Shown piece by piece: positions 6,048 to 36,286 of a stretch of DNA of 64,000 bases. Source of the DNA: a bacterium (GTDB taxonomy: Bacteria > Oederibacteriota > PGYV01 > Palsa-1178); assembly GCA_037138355.1 (NCBI GenBank), contig JBAXIL010000003.1, positions 13,065 to 77,064 on the forward strand, written 5' to 3'. A model generated the notes under the pieces. It worked only from the letters and a program-made list of their open reading frames with translations. It was not told the DNA's origin and did no database searches. Within the stretch, counting starts at the first letter, position 1, and each line of letters begins with the position of its first letter. The position numbers and the translations under genes are program-made.

Positions 6048-6653
6048 TTAAAATGCCCAACCAATTGCTGCATCAAAACATGGTAATGTTCCTGGTAAAG
6101 CAGCTATTGTTGTAGATGATGTACCTGCTGACACTGAATTAACTATATTAAGCTGTACTCCAAGACCTATCTGTGTAGTAAATCCATTTGCAATTACTAT
6201 ATTATATCCAGCCATTACGCCTATGAAGTGCATCATTCCTGTGTATCCTGTTGAACTTGCAATCCAAGCATCATATCTTGGTCCGAAATACCAACCCTCT
6301 ATTCCTTTTTGTAAAGGATGCCAAAAAAGATCTACTCCAAGTCCAAAAAAGTTTACTCCATATCCAGAAACTCCAACCCATGTACCTCTTGGTCTAATAC
6401 TAAGGTTTGGACCTATCATTCTTTCATAACCAATATTATAAATCATTGCAAGCCAAGGCCAAACATTTGTTACTAACATATTTTCATAAATCTCTCCTGT
6501 TGCTGGAGCTACTGAAACAGCCTTTGTTACTGGTGCTACTGCTACAGCCTTTGTTACTGGGGCTACTACGCTTGCTTTTTTTGTTGATGCTGCAAATAGA
6601 CTTGCAGAAAAAGCCAACACTACTACTAATACCAATGACATCATTTTTTTCAT
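6048..6653 (-). CDS. Putative outer-membrane beta-barrel protein with signal peptide, an N-terminal K/A/V/T repeat linker and a C-terminal aromatic residue (…AAIGWAF).
   Basis: Sec signal MKKMMSLVLVVVLAFSASLFA. Three copies of VAPVTKAV-like 9-mers. Alternating hydrophobic, Gly/aromatic-rich strands and a terminal Phe typical of OMP barrels. AAAGGAG RBS. Confidence 0.5.
   Translation of the reverse strand: MKKMMSLVLVVVLAFSASLFAASTKKASVVAPVTKAVAVAPVTKAVSVAPATGEIYENMLVTNVWPWLAMIYNIGYERMIGPNLSIRPRGTWVGVSGYGVNFFGLGVDLFWHPLQKGIEGWYFGPRYDAWIASSTGYTGMMHFIGVMAGYNIVIANGFTTQIGLGVQLNIVNSVSAGTSSTTIAALPGTLPCFDAAIGWAF
6508..6570 (-). repeat. 27-nt coding tandem repeat (2 full copies plus 1 partial) encoding VAPVTKAV(A/S) in the OMP-like gene.
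   Basis: gctactg(a/c)(a/t)acagcctttgttactgg is reiterated with period 27 nt. Confidence 0.6.
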
Positions 6654-21463: not shown

Positions 21464-22900
21464 TTAATTTATAAAATCCTTAAGTTTTTGTGCAGTTGTA
21501 ATATAATTAAACATAGCACTCAAATAATTCATTTTTGCTTTTAATAAACCATTTTCTGCATTTAATAAATCCACTGACTGTATAAGCCCATTTTTATAGG
21601 ACTCCTTTGCTATTCTATAACCTTCCTGGGCAGTTTTAATAAGATCATCTGCAGCTTCTATGACCTGTCTATTTTGTTCAAGAGAAGTGTAAAGCTGCTC
21701 AAGCTGTATAGCGAGCATATTGTCAATATTTTCTTTGTTAAGATCTGCTTTCTCAGTATTTGCCTCTGCTTCTTTTAATGATGCAACATTTTTAAAAGAA
21801 TCAAATACTGTCCACTGGAAACCTATAGTGACATCCCATGAATTCTGCCAATATGCGCTTTCTGTATGAAATGCTTTTTCCGTTGAGTAATAATTGTAAT
21901 TTGCATTCAATGCTATATTTGGCAAAAACATAGCTGCTTGGAGATTTCTGTTAAGCTTTGCTATGTTTGCAACTGATTCCACTATCTCTTTGTCATCATT
22001 TTTTTCCTTAAACTGTTTTAACATATCTTTATATGTAAAATCAAATTTTTTATATTCGGCCACACCCGATAATTTGATGTTTTCATCAAGTGGAATGCCT
22101 ATGGTATTTTTTAACATTTGAAGTGATAGCTTAGCTCCATCATCTGCTTTTTGTGCATCTGGCACAGAATTTGAAAACTGAACCTGCGCCTGTAAAACAT
22201 CAAAGTTTGATGCTTGTCCATTAGCATATTTGGTCTTAGTTATTCTGTAGTATTCTTCATTACTTTTTAATGTTTCTTGCATTGTTTTTGCCATTTCCTG
22301 AGCAATTAAGGCTCCATAAAACGAATTAATAACATCTAAATTTAATTTCTCTGCTGCCTTTTTATAGTTTATCCGAGCAATATTATAACTTTCTTCCGCC
22401 ATTTTCACTCCAAAAAATGTTTTTCCAAAAGTAAAGATCGGTTGTGTCAAAGATACTCTTGCTGAATAATAATTTTGTGGCATAAGCGCTAAAGCTGTAT
22501 CTGATGCAGGAAAACCAGGTCCAAAAGAATTTGCAGGAAGCAATGTACTTGCTAATTTACTGAATGGCTCATAACCACCAGCAATTACAATGGTTGGTCC
22601 AAAAGACCCTGTGGCTTTTGAAAGTTGAGCTTCTGCAGCAGTCTTATCAAGCCCTGCTATTTTATAATCTCTATTCTTTTCAGCTGCCATTTTATAGCAA
22701 TCATCAAAACTCATAACAGTTTTTGTTTGGGTGCTTTCAACTTCAGGAACTAAAGTCGCCTGAATTGTCGGTATTTGTTTTACTACAACTACTTTTTTTG
22801 GTGTTGCTTTTGCAGCAAATATCCCACTCGCTAAAATTAAGCCAACAAACAGAATAATGTTAATTCTCTTCATAATTAATTGCATTGTATTTTCCTCCAT
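21464..22900 (-). CDS. TolC-like outer membrane efflux protein (outer membrane factor).
   Basis: Signal peptide. Two repeated coiled-coil/beta-strand halves with conserved LxxAxxxYxxGxxxxxDVLxA-type motifs (YKNGLIQSVDLLNAENGL, YANGQASNFDVLQAQ). 478 aa. Confidence 0.85.
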   Translation of the reverse strand: MEENTMQLIMKRINIILFVGLILASGIFAAKATPKKVVVVKQIPTIQATLVPEVESTQTKTVMSFDDCYKMAAEKNRDYKIAGLDKTAAEAQLSKATGSFGPTIVIAGGYEPFSKLASTLLPANSFGPGFPASDTALALMPQNYYSARVSLTQPIFTFGKTFFGVKMAEESYNIARINYKKAAEKLNLDVINSFYGALIAQEMAKTMQETLKSNEEYYRITKTKYANGQASNFDVLQAQVQFSNSVPDAQKADDGAKLSLQMLKNTIGIPLDENIKLSGVAEYKKFDFTYKDMLKQFKEKNDDKEIVESVANIAKLNRNLQAAMFLPNIALNANYNYYSTEKAFHTESAYWQNSWDVTIGFQWTVFDSFKNVASLKEAEANTEKADLNKENIDNMLAIQLEQLYTSLEQNRQVIEAADDLIKTAQEGYRIAKESYKNGLIQSVDLLNAENGLLKAKMNYLSAMFNYITTAQKLKDFIN

Positions 22901-23481
22901 TAGTATAATATTTTCCAGGCAAAGCCTGTTTTAATAATCTGTAATTCTCCATAAGACACATTTAGATTTGAATAAGTTGGTCTTTCAATCCTGAGTGACA
23001 AAACTGATGTGTCATTCACATTCCAATTAAGCCCAAATCCAAAATTATAATAATCAGCAAGCCAAGTATTATCTCTATCACCGTTATATCCAGGAATTAT
23101 TTCATACTGACTATGTCTATTAGCAAATGCCCTACCATACTCAAAACATATATCAGGGTAAACTAATAAATTTGGACATATATTAACCCTGATACCTGCA
23201 AAGACAGGATAAAAAGTATAATATTCCTGAGAATTGCTCCTATCGACAAAAAACTGAAAACCTGCTCCAGCATATAGGTCCACCCACTTCGCAATAGTGC
23301 CACCTAACTTAGCATCAAAGACCGCCGTATCATAAGAACCAGTACTATTATTTTCCAGAGTACGCGGCGTAATTAATGATGCGTAGGAAACTCCAAACTC
23401 ACTGAAAATAATTTTTTCAGCCATAAGTGGACTCAAAACTGTTAAAAACATAAACAAAACTAAAATTAATATTTTTTTCAT
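22900..23481 (-). CDS. Small outer-membrane beta-barrel-like protein (193 aa) embedded in efflux operon 2.
   Basis: Signal peptide MKKILILVLFMFLTVLSPLMA. Alternating aromatic/Gly beta-strands. Terminal aromatic (…AWKILY). Stop overlaps the start of the TolC-like gene (22900). Confidence 0.5.
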   Translation of the reverse strand: MKKILILVLFMFLTVLSPLMAEKIIFSEFGVSYASLITPRTLENNSTGSYDTAVFDAKLGGTIAKWVDLYAGAGFQFFVDRSNSQEYYTFYPVFAGIRVNICPNLLVYPDICFEYGRAFANRHSQYEIIPGYNGDRDNTWLADYYNFGFGLNWNVNDTSVLSLRIERPTYSNLNVSYGELQIIKTGFAWKILY

Positions 23482-24466: not shown

Positions 24467-26089
24467 TTACATATTATCTTTTACTATTTTTTTCTTAACT
24501 CCACTTGATGCCAATATCACATGATAAGCAGATAAGGCTGGCATTTCTAAAGTGAATGTATTATTAATTATTTTGTCTATATCCTGTCTCCGTGTTATTT
24601 TAGCCTGACTTAACTTATCAAAGCCATAAGCCTTTCCTGTTTGATATATTTGGTCCGATTTGATTACAATTCTAACCATTGTTGTATTTATTAAATCTTT
24701 ATTTATGATTATGATATGAAGATTTGTTTCGTCGTTACCTTCTATTGAAGCATAAGTTGTTATTTTTGCTACATCAGAAGTATCTGCTTTTATATTTGTA
24801 TCACCATACTTGCCGCTATTTCCGTCATAATTTCTGTATAATCTAAAACCTGCCAAAGTATATGCTCCAAGTTCTGCCATCCAATAATTAGCCATATACA
24901 CTCCATATTTACCAAATATTCCCAATACATCTGCCTCTGCAATACCGCCCGATGGATGATAACCTGCTCCATATTCATATTCCGTAAAAGCAAGCTTGGT
25001 TCCTGGATAATATTTATCAATCATTTCATTTAGCTTTGGAATTAAGCGTATAGGACAATGTCCTGACGCGCATATCCAACTTGTTTCAATATAATTTGGA
25101 TCCCATAAAGACCTCGGGGCTTGAACTCTCGCCTCTGCTGTTTCTTCCGCCACACCTGCGGCCTGTGTGAATACTATTCTTTTTCCATTGGTTGAAGCTT
25201 CTGGATACCAGTGAACATCAAGCGCATCCAGCAAACGCATTCCTTTTGCTTTTGAGGCTTCATTTAACTTTTCTAAATAATACGCCAGATACCAACCGTA
25301 AACATAATAAGGTTTAATGTAATCAGGAGCATCCTGAAAAGTTCTGAATCCATTAAAACCATATGAGGCTGGTCCGTAGATTTCGGCGCTTGGATCTATT
25401 TTTTTCACAGCGCTTGCCGCATCAATAGAAAGCTGAACATACTCTTGTGCCCCAACTTTATTTTGGTGCAACCTTGGATGTGTGGTGGACCAAATATCAG
25501 GTTCATTATCAAGTGAATAACCCTTAACACCTGTTGACGTATCTGCTTTTCCGTATTTATTCACCAGAAAATTTACTTCTTCATCTACATAAACAAACCC
25601 ATCATTTTTATCAGGTTCTAATGATAATTCTTTTCCTTTAGTAAATATTACTTTTGCCCATCTGTCAGATGGTGCTATTTCTTTTACTCCAACAGGTCCA
25701 TTCTTATCTTTTGACACATAACCAGCAAGAGGTAGAGTTATTATAGAATACGCATTTAATGTAAGTGATTTATCGTGAAATGTAGTCAATACAGCACCAG
25801 CTTTATCTTGATCACCTGTCACATTTGCCCAATCTGCCAAATAATTATCAGAAGATTGCTGCCAATCACTACCAGCATTTGAAGCATTATTTTCCCAATT
25901 GTAACCAGTCATTCTATTACCACCTAAACGCCTCGCCGTGTAATTTGTATCCCTCGCAATATCTTGATTGACACCGTATATATAAGGAGAGATTTTTGTT
26001 CTGTCTTTTGATGTATCAATTGTTACATCAACAGCAAAAAGCAATGAAGCATTCAGAAATAATAGTAAGCCAGTCAGTATCCTTTTCAC
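24467..26089 (-). CDS. Secreted glycoside hydrolase, clan GH-A TIM-barrel. Family uncertain, possibly GH44-like.
   Basis: Signal peptide. RLGGNRMTGYNWENNASNAG block. NEP acid/base motif (YSLDNEPDIW) and a TEYE-type nucleophile motif (LAFTEYEYG), as in clan GH-A retaining glycosidases. Confidence 0.55.
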   Translation of the reverse strand: MKRILTGLLLFLNASLLFAVDVTIDTSKDRTKISPYIYGVNQDIARDTNYTARRLGGNRMTGYNWENNASNAGSDWQQSSDNYLADWANVTGDQDKAGAVLTTFHDKSLTLNAYSIITLPLAGYVSKDKNGPVGVKEIAPSDRWAKVIFTKGKELSLEPDKNDGFVYVDEEVNFLVNKYGKADTSTGVKGYSLDNEPDIWSTTHPRLHQNKVGAQEYVQLSIDAASAVKKIDPSAEIYGPASYGFNGFRTFQDAPDYIKPYYVYGWYLAYYLEKLNEASKAKGMRLLDALDVHWYPEASTNGKRIVFTQAAGVAEETAEARVQAPRSLWDPNYIETSWICASGHCPIRLIPKLNEMIDKYYPGTKLAFTEYEYGAGYHPSGGIAEADVLGIFGKYGVYMANYWMAELGAYTLAGFRLYRNYDGNSGKYGDTNIKADTSDVAKITTYASIEGNDETNLHIIIINKDLINTTMVRIVIKSDQIYQTGKAYGFDKLSQAKITRRQDIDKIINNTFTLEMPALSAYHVILASSGVKKKIVKDNM

Positions 26090-26239: not shown

Positions 26240-27883
26240 TCAGACTTTATATTTATAAAATGTCTTTATTGCTTCATATAATGTTAGATTGGCGTATGGT
26301 TCAAAAGGCGCACGCAAGGCTTTCATCATTAAAGGACTATGCAATATATAACGATAATTTGCGGAGAATTTTACTCCTGTATGTCCGTCCAATTCATCAG
26401 TGGTATAAGGAAGGTTTAATACCCAAACCGTGCTTCCTTTTATCTTATATCCAGTAATTAATGAGTAAGCATTATTAACAAGCGCTATTCTCTTTCCATT
26501 TTGTATTTCCCTACTAATAAATATATTGTCATCAAGCATTTCTTCCGCACCGCGAAAAGTTATGGTCTCTACCTGTATGTGGTCTTCTAATTCTTCTATT
26601 TCAAAATATTTTTTTAAACATTTAGCGGCTTCCACAGTTAAAACAATATTTTTTCTATTTTTGATAAGGAAGGCAAAAAGTGCTGGAAAATCTTCTTTGC
26701 GTGCTGACTGAGCTGTTAGAATTACTATCTTTTCCTTTACATTTCTTTTATCCGTAAGATAAGCAGGGATTCCTGCCATTAAAAAATATTGTGCAAGCAG
26801 TTCATCTCCATAAGTATTTGCTTCTCTTATCATAGGTATAGTAAATATCTTTCCAAAAGATGACAAGCGTCCCATCTTATCAGTTTTTTCTATAAGTTCT
26901 TCTACTAAAGGTCTCATTATAGGTTGAGGCATAATACCTGCACAGAACAATATAATTTCTTCTGCTCCACCCAAGACAGACTGAAAAGCTTGTTCTGTGT
27001 ATATTTCTTTATTGCACTGGTATATGTCAAACCATGCCTTTTTAACCTTACCTGGAGCAATTTGTTTTATATATTTAAAGAACATTGAACCATAAGCAGG
27101 CAAAAACCTTGCTTGTTTAAAATCACGGGTTTCCGTTCCAACGCCTATCTCATCATATATATCAATAAGCTTTGTGAGATCATAACCACGATCATAAAAA
27201 CGCTCATACCACTGAGGAAGCTTAAGTATAATATTCACATTTGGATTTACTTTTTTTGCTGGTTCAATAATAAATTTCTTTGAAACATCAAAAAGTAATT
27301 TAGACCTATACTCCTGCCATGTCTTTTTTCCTTTACCTTTTTTACATTCAGTACATTCACAAGAAGTAAAAAACCAATCATCTATTATTATCTCATCAAA
27401 TAGACCTGCTGTTATTTCAAAAACTTTCTTCATTTTTTTATTTGCTTCTTTATCAGAAAAACAACCTGAAGCTGTTGGAGTTTCATTTTTCACTTTGTCA
27501 GAAAAATGCGTAGGTGTAACAGCCCCAGAAACTTCGTATCCCTCTTCTATTAATTCGGCTTTCATAGCTTCTATTACAGGTATGTCTACCGTGTAACCAT
27601 CTCTATATGTTTCAAGATATACTTTCTTAATAGATAAAGGAGAAAAAATACCCATAAATTTTTTAATAATAGGTCCATAATCGCGTACATCAAAAGCAGT
27701 AAAGAAAAGTGCATAATAAAAATTCTTAGGGGATATGGTTTTTCCTTTAAAAGGCGTAAAATCATTTATAAGGGGGTCTTTTGGAACTGAAATAGGCCAC
27801 TTAGCAAGCGGCCTTAAGTTCTTAGCGGGGTAATTCAAACTTTCTACAAATTCAATCTGTTTTTGTTTAATCTTTTCGGTCAT
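26240..27883 (-). CDS. Uncharacterised cytoplasmic protein (547 aa) with a CxCxxC motif. Possibly a glycoside-hydrolase-like enzyme functionally linked to the adjacent secreted GH.
   Basis: No signal peptide. TSCECTEC cysteine triad (GH42 beta-galactosidases carry a CxCxxC zinc site, but the rest does not clearly match). Sits between the GH gene and the divergent MarR-emrAB promoter region. Confidence 0.4.
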   Translation of the reverse strand: MTEKIKQKQIEFVESLNYPAKNLRPLAKWPISVPKDPLINDFTPFKGKTISPKNFYYALFFTAFDVRDYGPIIKKFMGIFSPLSIKKVYLETYRDGYTVDIPVIEAMKAELIEEGYEVSGAVTPTHFSDKVKNETPTASGCFSDKEANKKMKKVFEITAGLFDEIIIDDWFFTSCECTECKKGKGKKTWQEYRSKLLFDVSKKFIIEPAKKVNPNVNIILKLPQWYERFYDRGYDLTKLIDIYDEIGVGTETRDFKQARFLPAYGSMFFKYIKQIAPGKVKKAWFDIYQCNKEIYTEQAFQSVLGGAEEIILFCAGIMPQPIMRPLVEELIEKTDKMGRLSSFGKIFTIPMIREANTYGDELLAQYFLMAGIPAYLTDKRNVKEKIVILTAQSARKEDFPALFAFLIKNRKNIVLTVEAAKCLKKYFEIEELEDHIQVETITFRGAEEMLDDNIFISREIQNGKRIALVNNAYSLITGYKIKGSTVWVLNLPYTTDELDGHTGVKFSANYRYILHSPLMMKALRAPFEPYANLTLYEAIKTFYKYKV

Positions 27884-32434: not shown

Positions 32435-32524
32435 TTATGTACTTCCTCCATTTTTTACCATATACATGACCATATTTCTATTTAATTGATTATAACACAA
32501 AAAATGTTTTAAGGCCTATTTTGA

Positions 32525-32590
32525 ACAAAAAAAACAGGCACACCCTGCGCTATGACCCGTATTACTACGGTCCGGTGTGCCTGTTTTGAA
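32525..32590 (-). terminator. Intrinsic terminator for the small secreted-protein genes (minus strand): 12-bp perfect stem with a long structured loop and a T8 tract.
   Basis: AACAGGCACACC...GGTGTGCCTGTT at 32533..32544 and 32574..32585. Inner hairpin CCGTA-ttac-TACGG. The minus strand continues TTTTTTTTGTTC. Confidence 0.6.
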
Positions 32591-32605
32591 ATATCTTAAA
32601 GTAAA

Positions 32606-32821
32606 TTACTTTGCTGCAACTGGTGTTACTACTACTGTTGCTACTACTGCTGCTTTTGCTTTCTTTGCTTTTCTTACTTTTTTTACTTTTACTACTTTAG
32701 CTGTTTCTGTTGTTGATACTGGTACCACTGCTGTTGTTACTGCTGCTACTTTTGTTTCTGCTGCAAATACCATTGTTGAAGCTAATGCCAATGCCATAAC
32801 GATTACTACGAACTTTTTCAT
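32606..32821 (-). CDS. Small secreted cationic protein (71 aa precursor), A/V/T-rich with a central lysine cluster. Paralog of 32874..33089.
   Basis: Sec signal MKKFVVIVMALALASTMVFA/AE. Mature region is ...KVVKVKKVRKAKKAKAAVV... Consensus AGGAGG RBS 6 nt upstream. Confidence 0.6.
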   Translation of the reverse strand: MKKFVVIVMALALASTMVFAAETKVAAVTTAVVPVSTTETAKVVKVKKVRKAKKAKAAVVATVVVTPVAAK

Positions 32822-32873
32822 GCTGTTCCTCCTGAGTTTTTTTGTCTTTCTATTGCGCAGTTTTTTTATTTTA

Positions 32874-33089
32874 TTACTGTGCTACTGTCGTTGCTACTTT
32901 GTGCAAAGCTGCTTTCTTTTTGTGATGATTTCTTTTTTTACTCTTTGTTTTCTTTACTTTTACTGGAGCAGTGACTACAGCAGTTGTTGAATCTACTCCT
33001 GCAGTATTCTCAACTGGTTTGCTCTCCGCAGCAAAAATCATTGTAGTTGCAAACGCAAACGCTAAAACTAAAATAAATACTTTTTTCAT
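32874..33089 (-). CDS. Small secreted cationic protein, paralog. Start reassigned to MKKVFIL... at 33089.
   Basis: Sec signal MKKVFILVLAFAFATTMIFA/AE. Lysine/His cluster KVKKTKSKKRNHHKKK. AAGGAGG RBS lies inside the track's MKEDF extension, 6 nt before the second ATG. Confidence 0.6.
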   Translation of the reverse strand: MKKVFILVLAFAFATTMIFAAESKPVENTAGVDSTTAVVTAPVKVKKTKSKKRNHHKKKAALHKVATTVAQ

Positions 33090-33172
33090 AAAATCCTCCT
33101 TCATTTTTTTTAATATAAAAATATAATAAATGTAATTATCAAGATAGAGGGGGAAAATAAAACAGGGGATGT

Positions 33173-33538
33173 TTATTTACGGGTTCTAATTATAGTAAGA
33201 TTTACCTTTGTTTTATAAATAGCATCTGTATTTACACTTGAATATGCAGGTGCAGTTTCATATTTAAAATCAGTTCTGTGAATAAACGTATTATTTTCAA
33301 ATCCAAACTTATTATTTTCTTCAGCTGTAAACGATACAATACTCCTGGAATTAGTTGAATGTCTATGATTATGTTTCTTATGTATTGCTTGTTTGAATCC
33401 AGAATTTGTAATAGTTTCTTGTGAAATGCCAGTCAAAATATCTGTTTTATGATATTGATTAACTATTTCAGGTTGTATTTGTGCATATGCAACTGTAATA
33501 ATTGCAAGCAAAATTGCTATTATCATTGCTTTTTTCAC
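33173..33538 (-). CDS. Small secreted hypothetical protein (121 aa, GTG start).
   Basis: Sec signal (V/M)KKAMIIAILLAIITVAYA/Q. AGGAGG RBS 6 nt before GTG. No family recognised. Confidence 0.5.
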   Translation of the reverse strand: MKKAMIIAILLAIITVAYAQIQPEIVNQYHKTDILTGISQETITNSGFKQAIHKKHNHRHSTNSRSIVSFTAEENNKFGFENNTFIHRTDFKYETAPAYSSVNTDAIYKTKVNLTIIRTRK

Positions 33539-33786
33539 AATATACCTCCTGAAATTGTATTTTATTTAAACAACAGCAATTAGACGATTGCAAATACCTT
33601 AAAGTTCCATTTACTTTGGATTTTTTCCGCATTATTCACCAATCATATTTCAACTCTATTGATATGCAGCAATGCTTATCAAAATGTAAAAATAGAATTA
33701 ATTATCTTTGTTTAAGATGCTTTCTTGAATAATAAAACATTATATCTTTAAAAAAAGCTAAAAAACGCCATAAACACCTTTAATTC

Positions 33787-33852: not shown

Positions 33853-34476
33853 TTGAAAAAAACTACTTTTTTGAGCTTATTTGGTGTATTGTTGCTATCT
33901 TCCCTATTCTTAATCTCAGGTTGTGGTACAGATGTAAAAAGAGCAAGAAAAGATGCAGCTCTATTAAATAGCTTTGAAACATTACAATCTGAACTCTCCA
34001 TAGGTGACTTTAACTTAGACACAAACGGATATGTTAATTTAGAACAAATAAAGAAATATGCTTCGCAAGGTAAGTTCTCAGCTAAAGCGGTTTTTTCCGT
34101 ACCTGTAGATTTTCTCACTACAACACAGGCTGCTAAAGCCAAAACATGGATTTCTTCCTTATCTATGGGTATTAATACTCTTACAAAACTAAAAACAACG
34201 GATTGGCAATATTATAAGAAATTTTCTATTGATATATATGTAGCCGATCCGACAGCACCAGATATTTTCATAAAGTTAGTAGATATGTACGGAAATGAGT
34301 ATTTAACACAAAGAGTTCTTAAAAACGGAAGAAACAAACTTGAGATAATTTTAGAAGATGTAAAAAATTCCAGAGTAAGTATATCTGCAATTACATCATT
34401 TTCAATATATATGGATACAATAAACCAACCAAAAGATATCACACTTTATCTTGATAATATAAGATTGGTTTTATAA
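33853..34476 (+). CDS. Hypothetical lipoprotein (207 aa, TTG start).
   Basis: Lipobox LFLISGC following an n/h-region. GGAGGA RBS. A 5-nt gap to the next gene suggests co-transcription. Confidence 0.55.
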   Translation: MKKTTFLSLFGVLLLSSLFLISGCGTDVKRARKDAALLNSFETLQSELSIGDFNLDTNGYVNLEQIKKYASQGKFSAKAVFSVPVDFLTTTQAAKAKTWISSLSMGINTLTKLKTTDWQYYKKFSIDIYVADPTAPDIFIKLVDMYGNEYLTQRVLKNGRNKLEIILEDVKNSRVSISAITSFSIYMDTINQPKDITLYLDNIRLVL

Positions 34477-34481
34477 GTTTT

Positions 34482-35351
34482 ATGAAATCAATCGGTGTAC
34501 TTTTTGACCTACTCAGGGTTAAACAGTGGACAAAAAATCTTTTAATTTACGCCGCCCTTGTTTTTACCAGCAATCTTTTTAATCCTATTTATTTTCGCAG
34601 TGTTACTATAGGATTTTTTCTTCTTTGTTTTGCGGCAAGCTCTCTTTATATCTTTAACGACTTAGCTGATTACGAATCAGACCGACTTCACCCCCAAAAG
34701 AGAAATAGACCTATTGCCTCAAATAAAGTTAATAAAATTTTTGCGTTGAGCTTAGCCATTCTTTTAATGTCATTTTCCTTAATTGGTGCTTATTTTCTTA
34801 ACTTTAGTTTTTTCATCCTAATTATATGCTATCTCACTATGACTACACTTTATACTTTATTTTTAAAACATATTGTTATAGTTGATGTCTTCATATTATC
34901 TATAGGTTTCGTTTTAAGAGCGATTGCAGGTGCCCTTGTGTTATCTGTTTCCATATCACCTTGGTTATTAATTTGTACCCTTTTATTGGCACTCTTTTTG
35001 GCTTTAGCAAAAAGAAGAAACGAACTCACCATACCAGATGCTCACAAACACAGAAAAATTTTAGAAGAATACTCCATACCACTTTTGGATGAAATGATAT
35101 CAGTAGTTACAGCTTCTACAGTTATTGCCTATTCGCTTTATACCTTTTATTCTCCAACAGCAGTCAAACATAGCTATCTTATGCTAACCATACCTTTTGT
35201 ATTATACGGAATTTTCAGATATTTGTATTTAATACACAAAAAAAATATGGGCGGAAGTCCTGAAGCAATTCTTCTTAAAGATTTACCAATAATGATAAAT
35301 GTAATTCTTTTTGTCTTGACCACAATAATAATTGTTTATTTTGTTAAATGA
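34482..35351 (+). CDS. UbiA-family prenyltransferase, most similar in motif to decaprenyl-phosphate phosphoribosyltransferase (DPPR synthase) class.
   Basis: About 8 TM helices. First Asp-rich motif NDLADYESDRLHPQKRNRPIASNKV (cf. NDxxDxExDRxHPxKRxRPIAxG of DPPR synthases). Second DxxxD-like region later. 289 aa. Confidence 0.75.
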   Translation: MKSIGVLFDLLRVKQWTKNLLIYAALVFTSNLFNPIYFRSVTIGFFLLCFAASSLYIFNDLADYESDRLHPQKRNRPIASNKVNKIFALSLAILLMSFSLIGAYFLNFSFFILIICYLTMTTLYTLFLKHIVIVDVFILSIGFVLRAIAGALVLSVSISPWLLICTLLLALFLALAKRRNELTIPDAHKHRKILEEYSIPLLDEMISVVTASTVIAYSLYTFYSPTAVKHSYLMLTIPFVLYGIFRYLYLIHKKNMGGSPEAILLKDLPIMINVILFVLTTIIIVYFVK

Positions 35352-36286
35352 TTCTTGCAGTTACTTTAAACTCCACCATAGACATTGTAATCCCTGTAAA
35401 TAATCTAAAACCTGGCTCTGTTTCTCGAACTAAAGCCATATACACCTACCCCGGTGGTAAAGCAACTAATGTTGCCCGCGCCTTAAAACAACTCGGTGCC
35501 ACTGCCCACGCTATTGGATTTGTAGGTATTAGGGATTCTCGCGAAACAGAACATTTTCTTAAACACCACGGCGTTACTTCGTCTTATATCCCATGTACTG
35601 GTTCAAATAGAATATGCCTTCTTTTAACCGAAACTAAGGATGTCCCGAGAGAAACGGTAATAAACAGCGAATCTGACATAGACATAACAAAAAAAGAAAT
35701 AGACATATTTTTACAACAACTTAAAACACTATCAATTAAAGCTTCACACATTATCTTTTCAGGCAGTTTACCCTTATCATTGCCATCAAACTTTTATGAA
35801 ACAGCCTTAAAAGTGGTAGATAAAAATTGTATCTCCATACTTGACACTTCGGCCAAATATCTATTTCATGGTATAAAAGCATCCCCTAAAATAATAAAAC
35901 AGAATCTAAGTGAGCTTGAATCAGCTTTTCATGTAAAACTAACAAATCCATCCAAAATTAAAAAATTTGTATCAGCACTTTCAATAAAATATAAGGTACC
36001 CATAATTATAGTAACTATGGATAAAAAGGGTTCGCTTGTGTTTGATAATGGAAGTTTTTATTTTTATCCAGCCATAAAAGTTAAAAAAATTATATCTCCT
36101 GTTGGTTCTGGTGATGCTTTTTCGGCAGGTTTAGTTTATGGATTATCAAAAGGATATAGCGTAAAAAACTCATGTAAATGGGCTGCCTCAGCTGCTTCTG
36201 CAAATTTGTCGCACTTGGGTTCGTGTTTTATTAGTAGGAAGAATGTATTAAAATATCTTGCCAATGCTAAAATTACTAATTATTGA
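35348..36286 (+). CDS. PfkB-family sugar kinase of the FruK/LacC (1-phosphofructokinase / tagatose-6-phosphate kinase) subfamily.
   Basis: N-terminal ILAVTLNSTIDIV...YPGGKATNVARAL. C-terminal anion hole PVGSGDAFSAGLVYG. ATGA overlap with the upstream gene indicates translational coupling. Confidence 0.78.
   Translation: MILAVTLNSTIDIVIPVNNLKPGSVSRTKAIYTYPGGKATNVARALKQLGATAHAIGFVGIRDSRETEHFLKHHGVTSSYIPCTGSNRICLLLTETKDVPRETVINSESDIDITKKEIDIFLQQLKTLSIKASHIIFSGSLPLSLPSNFYETALKVVDKNCISILDTSAKYLFHGIKASPKIIKQNLSELESAFHVKLTNPSKIKKFVSALSIKYKVPIIIVTMDKKGSLVFDNGSFYFYPAIKVKKIISPVGSGDAFSAGLVYGLSKGYSVKNSCKWAASAASANLSHLGSCFISRKNVLKYLANAKITNY

Follow-up and report, generated by a model that had tools for sequence, protein, structure and literature searches.

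Asr, a chaperone/aggregase in the periplasm of Escherichia coli, is positively charged and intrinsically disordered; it is massively induced by stress and is needed for acid survival and for the integrity of the outer membrane (PMC10746267, PMC13425233, citing Seputiene 2003 and Ren 2022). In the present study, three small adjacent genes, designated C, B and A in the order of their transcription, were analyzed in a 64,000-nucleotide stretch (hereafter, the window) of contig JBAXIL010000003.1 (assembly GCA_037138355.1) from an uncultivated bacterium. These genes appear to form one operon with an extracytoplasmic function (ECF) sigma-type promoter, three optimal ribosome-binding sites and one terminator. 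In our estimation, the chance is even that this operon, under ECF control, encodes disordered polycationic mini-proteins of the periplasm whose role is to protect the envelope in a manner close to that of Asr. The operon resembles the regulons of ECF sigma factors of the sigma-E, sigma-M or sigma-W type in its AAC/CGT(C) promoter pattern and in the predicted extracytoplasmic location of its products; to our knowledge, no described ECF regulon contains poly-lysine mini-proteins.

Organization of the C-B-A operon

The elements of the putative operon are listed below in the direction of transcription, with positions counted from the first nucleotide of the window.

33580–33608, minus strand: predicted ECF sigma-type promoter GGAAC-N17-CGTCTAA; its -10 element ends 41 nt before the C start codon
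33173–33538, minus strand: gene C, encoding a 121-amino-acid precursor, with a GTG start, a predicted signal peptide ...TVAYA/QIQPE, the His/Lys motif HKKHNHRH and the invariant C-terminus NLTI..[TA]RK
32874–33089, minus strand: gene B, encoding a 71-amino-acid precursor and a predicted 51-amino-acid mature peptide with a Lys/His core
32848–32861, minus strand: the 14-mer ACTGCGCAATAGAA, conserved in the spacer between B and A
32606–32821, minus strand: gene A, encoding a 71-amino-acid precursor and a predicted 51-amino-acid mature peptide, in which a poly-Lys core lies between Val/Thr/Ala arms, with a C-terminal Lys
32524–32587, minus strand: intrinsic terminator that closes the operon after gene A, consisting of a 14-bp stem with an inner hairpin, followed by a U-run

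Three small open reading frames (ORFs) on the minus strand, as described in the initial annotation, were verified at these positions. The mature peptides of about 50 residues, their basic cores (KVVKVKKVRKAKKAKAA in A and KVKKTKSKKRNHHKKKAALHK in B) and the signal-peptide ends TM(V/I)FA/AE also read exactly as first reported. For gene B, an alternative ORF start exists at 33104, and the start at 33089 is favored by the Shine–Dalgarno site and by the orthologues. The full AGGAGG sequence is located 5–6 nt upstream of all three start codons (AGGAGGT, 5 nt before C). It precedes only 4 of the 52 genes of the window, three of which are C, B and A, which bears out the earlier impression of strong translation signals.

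The stem of the terminator is a single perfect 14-nt inverted repeat (32531–32544/32574–32587), with a folding energy of -31.4 kcal/mol and z = -3.0, and no terminator-like sites were found between C, B and A, in agreement with the one shared terminator proposed initially. This structure is retained after gene A in two related metagenomic loci, L093 and L095 (loci are designated by L numbers and individual proteins from them by P numbers). In L093, compared with the window, compensatory changes from A-U to G-C are seen in two pairs of the stem and no pair is disrupted; moreover, the 29-nt loop with its inner hairpin is conserved among the window, L093 (395–455) and L095. Locus L088 carries a different hairpin-plus-T-run terminator at the same place. 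The role of the operon terminator may extend beyond termination; a small RNA, for instance, might originate from this 3' untranslated region.

The 14-mer ACTGCGCAATAGAA of the B-A spacer recurs unchanged in L093, L094 and L095, and L087 has a similar sequence; these loci differ in GC content. A role as an RNA processing site or an internal regulatory site is possible. Whether the spacer sequence CUGCGCAAUAG pairs with its complement, CAUAGCGCAG, in the loop of the terminator was also examined; the idea was rejected, given that the loop of L095 is altered and its spacer carries no compensating change.

Predicted ECF-type promoter upstream of gene C

Alignment of the regions upstream of C in the window and in L089 revealed a conserved block 40–70 nt before the start codon. 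The motif TGGAAC-N17-CGTCTAAT is present at each of the four loci that extend upstream of C, namely, the window, L089, L087 and L094, with both elements invariant and the 17-nt spacer unrelated in sequence. There is one match to the motif in the 64-kb window against 0 expected, and among 98 loci it occurs at all C-upstream sites and in only three other places. A GGAAC sequence at -35 and CGTC(T) at -10, located 16–17 nt apart, with elements conserved while the spacer drifts, are the features expected of an ECF promoter. Since AAC at -35 and CGTC(T) at -10 separated by 17 nt constitute the ECF pattern, the unit was read as P(ECF)-C-B-A-terminator. In the comparison with published lists of Streptomyces sigma-E targets, the same pattern was found in envelope-stress promoters such as that of mreBCD, GGGAAC-N17-CGTCTC (PMC6767563). 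From the consensus match and the phylogenetic footprint, we infer that a conserved ECF sigma (envelope-stress) promoter drives C-B-A. A sigma-54 promoter reading of the conserved block was rejected because the GG-to-GC spacing is wrong.

Conservation of the C-B-A genes

Exact copies were found on nine metagenomic contigs. In addition, C-like, B-like and A-like genes occur in the same order as in the window in L087 (47% GC) and L094 (42% GC), and in L088 (47% GC), two such peptides follow the 3' terminal portion of a C-like gene whose product shares the tail ...ITIARSRK. The order is retained in part in L093, where B-like and A-like genes and the same terminator are followed by an extra A-like copy, and in L089, where a C copy 76% identical to that of the window is located at the contig end. 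The conserved order spans 32–47% GC, and the Lys-rich core, together with the gene order, persists in relatives of 42–47% GC, beyond what chance would explain. The identified orthologues of C are P0010 (76% identity), L087:476–844, L094:809–1180 and the C-terminal fragment in L088; those of B, in the same position, are found in L087 (P0005), L094, L088 (P0006) and L093; the homologues of A are P0001–P0003, L088:674–922 and a partial copy in L087. The extra A-like gene of L093 (616–756) has its own AGGAGG and lies about 240 bp past the operon terminator; thus, the copy number of the peptide genes varies between loci.

The differences between orthologues fall mostly at the third codon positions of the annotated frame, and the start codons (including the GTG of C), the Shine–Dalgarno sites and the signal peptides are conserved. 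All relatives are stand-alone genes for proteins of 56–82 amino acids, each with its own start, Shine–Dalgarno site and stop, rather than degenerate fragments of a larger gene, an eventuality considered in the initial annotation. The excess of third-position substitutions, together with the conserved starts and Shine–Dalgarno sites, led us to reject both the fragment reading and that of a low-complexity artefact; judged by these patterns of conservation, C, B and A are real genes.

The flanking genes differ between loci: a lipoprotein gene, a UbiA-family gene and a PfkB gene adjoin the cluster in the window and L089, a GGDEF gene is located upstream in L087 and L094, and a gene for a methyl-accepting chemotaxis protein lies downstream in L088. 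Hence, only the C-B-A linkage is conserved and, on the evidence of this linkage, C is an obligate conserved partner of B and A and not a chance neighbor. The cluster of three genes recognized initially is in this sense a real unit, to which the status of C and the promoter conserved at every locus that includes it are now added. A functional link to the divergent lipoprotein/UbiA (DPPR synthase)/PfkB genes was rejected, as this synteny is limited to close relatives and L087 and L094 have the GGDEF gene.

The sequences are of low complexity and have very few relatives in databases, as might be expected if C, B and A were non-functional ORFs produced by AT-rich DNA. A word-index search returned three homologues of A and, for B, only itself, and a complete HMMER search using the family profile gave 7 matches among 1.84 billion representative proteins. 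The search for paralogs suggested in the initial annotation has thus yielded a tiny family, although one with a conserved C-B-A order in metagenomic contigs. B (MEI7541824.1) and C are annotated in NCBI as hypothetical proteins, but the exact sequence of protein A from the same metagenome-assembled genome (MAG) was not found in a collection of 15 billion proteins, and the annotation pipeline may have overlooked gene A. A 137-amino-acid ORF is also open on the opposite strand (32577–32990, plus strand); it was dismissed as an antisense artefact of stop-free K/A/V/T codons, as it has no ribosome-binding site and crosses the intergenic spacer. Against an origin in AT-rich low-complexity DNA stand the third-position excess, the conserved signal peptides, and the fact that order, length, starts, Shine–Dalgarno sites, promoter and terminator are all conserved across 32–47% GC. 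We regard the probability of such an artefact as negligible.

A profile search of genome contigs with the family profile gave 600 pattern matches and no confirmed relative, and no confirmed relative emerged from two scans of metagenome contigs with gene C profiles, the patterns being too degenerate or lying within the signal peptide. The break in L094 and the end of the L089 contig after C suggest that assemblies tend to break at these genes, a possible reason for the small number of relatives found. In L094, the region 1713–1928 after the truncated A-like P0003 (56 amino acids, ending AAAAAS) is apparently unrelated and GC-richer, and L094 is probably a chimera or a contig misassembled at the low-complexity repeat.

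A tandem pair of Ser/Thr/Lys-rich peptides with signal peptides (71–91 and 60 amino acids) was noticed in an unrelated high-GC organism (L090, 401–928; L097, 8001–8588). Both have a Ser/Thr arm and a KKxKK core and end in ...APK; the pair lacks a C homologue and is located between an HMGL-like (homocitrate/isopropylmalate-synthase-like) gene and a peptidase M20/M28 gene. It could be a distant relative or a convergent analogue, and it hints at a wider unannotated class.

Predicted signal peptides and probable periplasmic location

The precursors of A, B and C begin with MKK, followed by a hydrophobic stretch of 13–15 residues and a small-residue cleavage motif (TMVFA/AE in A, TMIFA/AE in B and AYA/QI in C), with V-F-A/A-E at positions -3 and -1; as predicted by sequence rules, they probably carry Sec-type signal peptides. 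A and B share 58% identity over 24 residues (E 7e-9), with clear similarity limited to the signal peptide. At the same time, they have a common layout, in which a neutral Thr/Ala/Val arm precedes a Lys-rich core and a short tail, and they are of equal length. On the strength mainly of signal peptides, architecture and length, A and B are paralogues, as had been proposed from the first reading.

The UvrB protein encoded in the window is 77% identical to that of an uncultured Spirochaetia MAG, 75% to that of a candidate division FCPU426 MAG and 71% to that of a Candidatus Goldbacteria MAG, and all other identities are ≤59%. The window also encodes TolC, resistance-nodulation-division (RND) pumps, an OmpA-family protein and a SurA-like peptidyl-prolyl isomerase. 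TolC, the RND pumps and the OmpA-family protein indicate a diderm host, in which a Sec signal implies a periplasmic location and not secretion from the cell. Consequently, of the original description of these proteins as Sec-secreted, the Sec-type signal peptides stand, but secretion from the cell does not.

This location also bears on the idea that the products are Sec-dependent cationic antimicrobial (bacteriocin-like) peptides directed against competitors. They are indeed small and strongly cationic and have predicted signal peptides; gene A has hydrophobic arms in addition to a cationic core; the genes are tandem paralogues, with an extra copy in L093; and weak matches to the JUQZ_fam_ocin model were recorded (13–14 bits against a cut-off of 40). 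However, Sec export in a diderm ends in the periplasm, and no immunity, ABC-export or processing genes adjoin the cluster in any locus, its neighbors being, depending on the locus, pyruvate kinase, the lipoprotein, the UbiA-family enzyme, the GGDEF protein or the chemotaxis protein. Moreover, the cluster does not vary between strains and is conserved, with synteny, in the housekeeping surroundings of related genomes, an ECF envelope-stress promoter would be unusual as bacteriocin control, and no amphipathic fold was predicted by AlphaFold2. Of the roles suggested in the initial annotation, neither antimicrobial activity nor nucleic-acid binding has gained support, and an antimicrobial function is, in our judgment, unlikely.

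Charge and predicted disorder

The calculated isoelectric points are 10.2–11.1 and the net charges +8 to +14, with about +9 for each of the 51-residue mature A and B peptides. The calculated charge of B rises from +9 at pH 7 to +13 at pH 4.5 and that of C from +5 to +14.5 at pH 4.5. Gene A differs in composition, with 29% Val, a grand average of hydropathy of +0.48 and no His. The mean predicted local distance difference test (pLDDT) scores of the AlphaFold2 models were 41 for C and 53 for A, with residues 22–121 of C below 50 and, in A, a helix at residues 2–28 (the signal peptide) only and most of the rest below 50, values that are weak evidence for disorder because the alignments were shallow (3–5 sequences). 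In agreement with the models, B and the C of the window fall on the disordered side of the charge-hydropathy plot, and A of the window, as well as the C orthologues of L087 and L094, on the "folded" side. Mature A, B and C appear to be intrinsically disordered.

Comparison with Asr

No Pfam, NCBIfam or PADLOC model matched A, B or C above its cut-off, and weak DUF6520 and mini-MOMP matches span the signal peptide only. An Rfam search of the region 31.5–34.5 kb gave nothing meaningful, and a PDB sequence search with the family profile produced chance matches only. The recurrent best NCBIfam match was NF033636 (acid_shock_Asr, "acid resistance repetitive basic protein Asr"; curated cut-off, 50 bits), with E<0.1 in 8 of the 11 non-E. 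coli members. The scores for individual proteins were as follows.

Window B: 18.4 bits, E 0.003
Window A: 14.4 bits, E 0.05
B orthologue of L087: 27.4 bits, E 4.7e-6
P0007: 26.3 bits, E 1e-5

The scores of the relatives ranged from 15.3 to 27.4 bits, and E. coli Asr itself (sequence taken from MG1655) matched with E 3.5e-29. The earlier statement that the peptides belong to no recognized family holds in that no curated threshold is reached, but a nearest analogue does exist.

The resemblance to Asr is one of design. The layout of E. coli Asr comprises a signal peptide ...AAFA/AETTTT, a Thr/Ala/Pro arm and then K/H/A-rich basic repeats; likewise, the peptides described here have a signal peptide ...FA/AE(T) and a Thr/Ala-rich arm that leads into a basic Lys(/His)/Ala region, and the B-family peptides begin, like mature Asr, with FAAET and a Thr-rich arm. 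Mature Asr contains 28% A, 21% K and 14% T, and the same three residues are the most abundant in the B orthologues of L087, L094 and L088; in window B, Val equals Ala and both exceed Thr. Both systems combine small size, the lack of a predicted fold and a design for very strong expression behind a stress-type promoter, and in B and C, as in Asr, His residues add positive charge at low pH. The differences are also evident: the peptides have about 51 residues with a single basic core, compared with 81 residues and repeated K/H/Q/P units in Asr, and the host belongs to a candidate phylum and not to the Enterobacteriaceae.

Several observations weigh against an Asr-like function. All NF033636 scores are below the 50-bit cut-off and include the signal peptide; the Pfam Asr repeat PF06392 was detected in none of the 11 members, even at E≤10 (E. 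coli Asr, E 2.2e-12); hhalign of the mature parts against Asr gave a probability of 5%; and BLASTP against Asr gave no match. Outside its core, gene A is hydrophobic and rich in Val, and it lacks His. Asr has no counterpart of C, and two tandem paralogues with the partner C occur here, compared with asr-ydgU(samT) in E. coli. Regulation differs as well, from the two-component control of Asr (RstBA/PhoBR) to a putative ECF sigma factor, and the window contains no ECF sigma or anti-sigma gene, with no Sigma70_r2 or Sigma70_r4 domain among the window genes scanned. The shallow alignments behind the structure predictions belong to the same side of the balance. With BLASTP, hhalign and PF06392 all negative, the peptides are Asr-like in design and not demonstrable members of the Asr family; by layout and profile matches, Asr is their nearest known analogue, with homology that is not demonstrable.

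Possible cell-wall attachment and polyanion binding

Braun's lipoprotein Lpp ends in YRK, and C ends in ...TRK. The C-B-A products would resemble Lpp/OprI as small, abundant envelope proteins in which a C-terminal Lys follows Arg (in C), and it could be imagined that the C-terminal Lys is linked to peptidoglycan by an L,D-transpeptidase, as in Lpp, or that the attachment is non-covalent, with the polycationic chains holding the anionic outer membrane or stabilizing the envelope. The C-terminus [TSA]RK, common to the five C sequences, recalls that of Lpp. Nearly all complete A and B family members also end in Lys (...AAK, ...ASK, ...VAK, ...ATK or ...TTK), although a terminal Lys is not unusual in proteins with 20–28% Lys and the count is not independent because the sequences are phylogenetically related. 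The ECF promoter would fit a cell-wall function, L,D-transpeptidases being ECF targets in Streptomyces (PMC6767563). However, Cys is absent from the A, B and C precursors altogether, so that they lack a lipobox Cys, and they have no signal of an alanine-zipper coiled coil; the only match to the Lpp/OprI model was that of one relative (17.7 bits against a cut-off of 43). In addition, the last residue of window B is Gln, no YkuD-type transpeptidase turned up among the window genes scanned, and the terminal Lys might instead mask the ...AA tail from a tail-specific protease. We consider wall attachment rather improbable.

A further argument for a wall-associated role comes from the outer-membrane-protein (OMP)-like gene 6048–6653 (minus strand), the product of which (201 amino acids) has a predicted signal peptide, a related A/V/T/K periplasmic linker and a probable small beta-barrel ending in ...IGWAF, and matches no Pfam or NCBIfam family. 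The likeness of this linker to the peptides, pointed out in the initial annotation, holds for the A/V/T/K composition (VAPVTKAV x3), which is like that of peptide A, but the linker is not poly-lysine; it may be a periplasmic linker typical of the lineage. A second small OMP-like protein (193 amino acids, with a signal peptide, ending in ...WKILY and without a family match) is encoded at 22900–23481 (minus strand), immediately upstream of the TolC-like gene of a MarR-OMP-TolC-HlyD-RND cluster.

Sequences of the KKAKKAKKA type are classic polyanion binders, known from H1-like proteins and from the lysine-rich repeats of HBHA. The similar cores of the present peptides would be expected to bind polyanions, and their targets could be extracellular or on the cell surface (extracellular DNA, acidic polysaccharides), in the service of a biofilm matrix or of adhesion, in the manner of H1-like tails or HBHA. 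The diguanylate-cyclase (GGDEF) gene that immediately precedes the cluster in L087 and L094 would suit such a role, but this neighbor is absent from the window and L089. Furthermore, no route across the outer membrane is evident, and no DNA-binding or adhesin domain was found by Pfam and NCBIfam searches. In H1-like proteins and in the C-terminal domain of mycobacterial HBHA, the repeat is a domain of a larger cytoplasmic or surface protein, H1-like proteins being cytoplasmic and devoid of signal peptides, whereas the present peptides are stand-alone and have predicted signal peptides. A matrix or adhesive function appears improbable to a similar degree as wall attachment.

Polyamines, D-alanylation or aminoarabinose adjust envelope charge in other bacteria. 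The C-B-A operon might represent an undescribed envelope-charge system, in which ECF-induced oligo-lysine peptides located on peptidoglycan/lipopolysaccharide (LPS), or linked to it via the C-terminal Lys, would neutralize the envelope, tether the outer membrane and provide resistance to cationic antimicrobials, with C as a dedicated partner; the L090/L097 pairs would then make this a widespread and overlooked class. We offer this possibility as speculation, with a small chance of being correct.

Proposed role of the C-B-A products

The reading that we prefer, protection of the envelope in the manner of Asr, would proceed as follows. An extracytoplasmic stress signal would trigger strong conditional expression of C-B-A, and the precursors would be exported by Sec to the periplasm of the diderm, uncultivated FCPU426/Goldbacteria-related host, where the signal peptides would be removed. 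The products released would be two peptides of about 51 residues, with a charge of about +9 each, and one basic protein of about 100 residues, all disordered, and the His residues of B and C would give a higher charge at low pH. As soluble polycations, they might bind LPS or lipid head groups, peptidoglycan and unfolded proteins, and this binding would protect the integrity of the outer membrane and the periplasm. The first three steps (expression, export and the presence of polycations in the periplasm) are suggested by sequence features and their conservation, and the protective binding of polyanions or client proteins by analogy with Asr.

Other genes of the window

The UbiA-family gene next to the cluster (34482–35351, plus strand) matches the NCBIfam model of decaprenyl-phosphate phosphoribosyltransferase with 285 bits against a cut-off of 234. 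This enzyme is known from mycobacterial arabinan synthesis and is unexpected in a diderm candidate-phylum bacterium. The gene is flanked by those of an unassigned lipoprotein (33853–34476, plus strand) and a PfkB-family sugar kinase (35348–36286, plus strand). Elsewhere in the window, a 547-amino-acid ORF without a Pfam match (26240–27883, minus strand) adjoins a gene for a glycoside hydrolase of the GH44 family (24467–26089, minus strand).

Implications

The C-B-A operon does not overturn current understanding, and the observation is now better defined than at first reading. The case illustrates how such genes escape annotation, with the exact sequence of A missing from a large collection and only seven relatives among 1.84 billion representative proteins. 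As the peptides have only 51 residues, their synthesis and direct binding assays with LPS, peptidoglycan, DNA and a client protein are feasible, and the conserved promoter provides a handle on the ECF regulon of an uncultivated lineage. If the proposed role is correct, periplasmic disordered polycations of the Asr type would reach beyond enterobacteria as a recurrent solution to envelope protection, in this case as a module of three genes under ECF control in a candidate phylum without cultured members.

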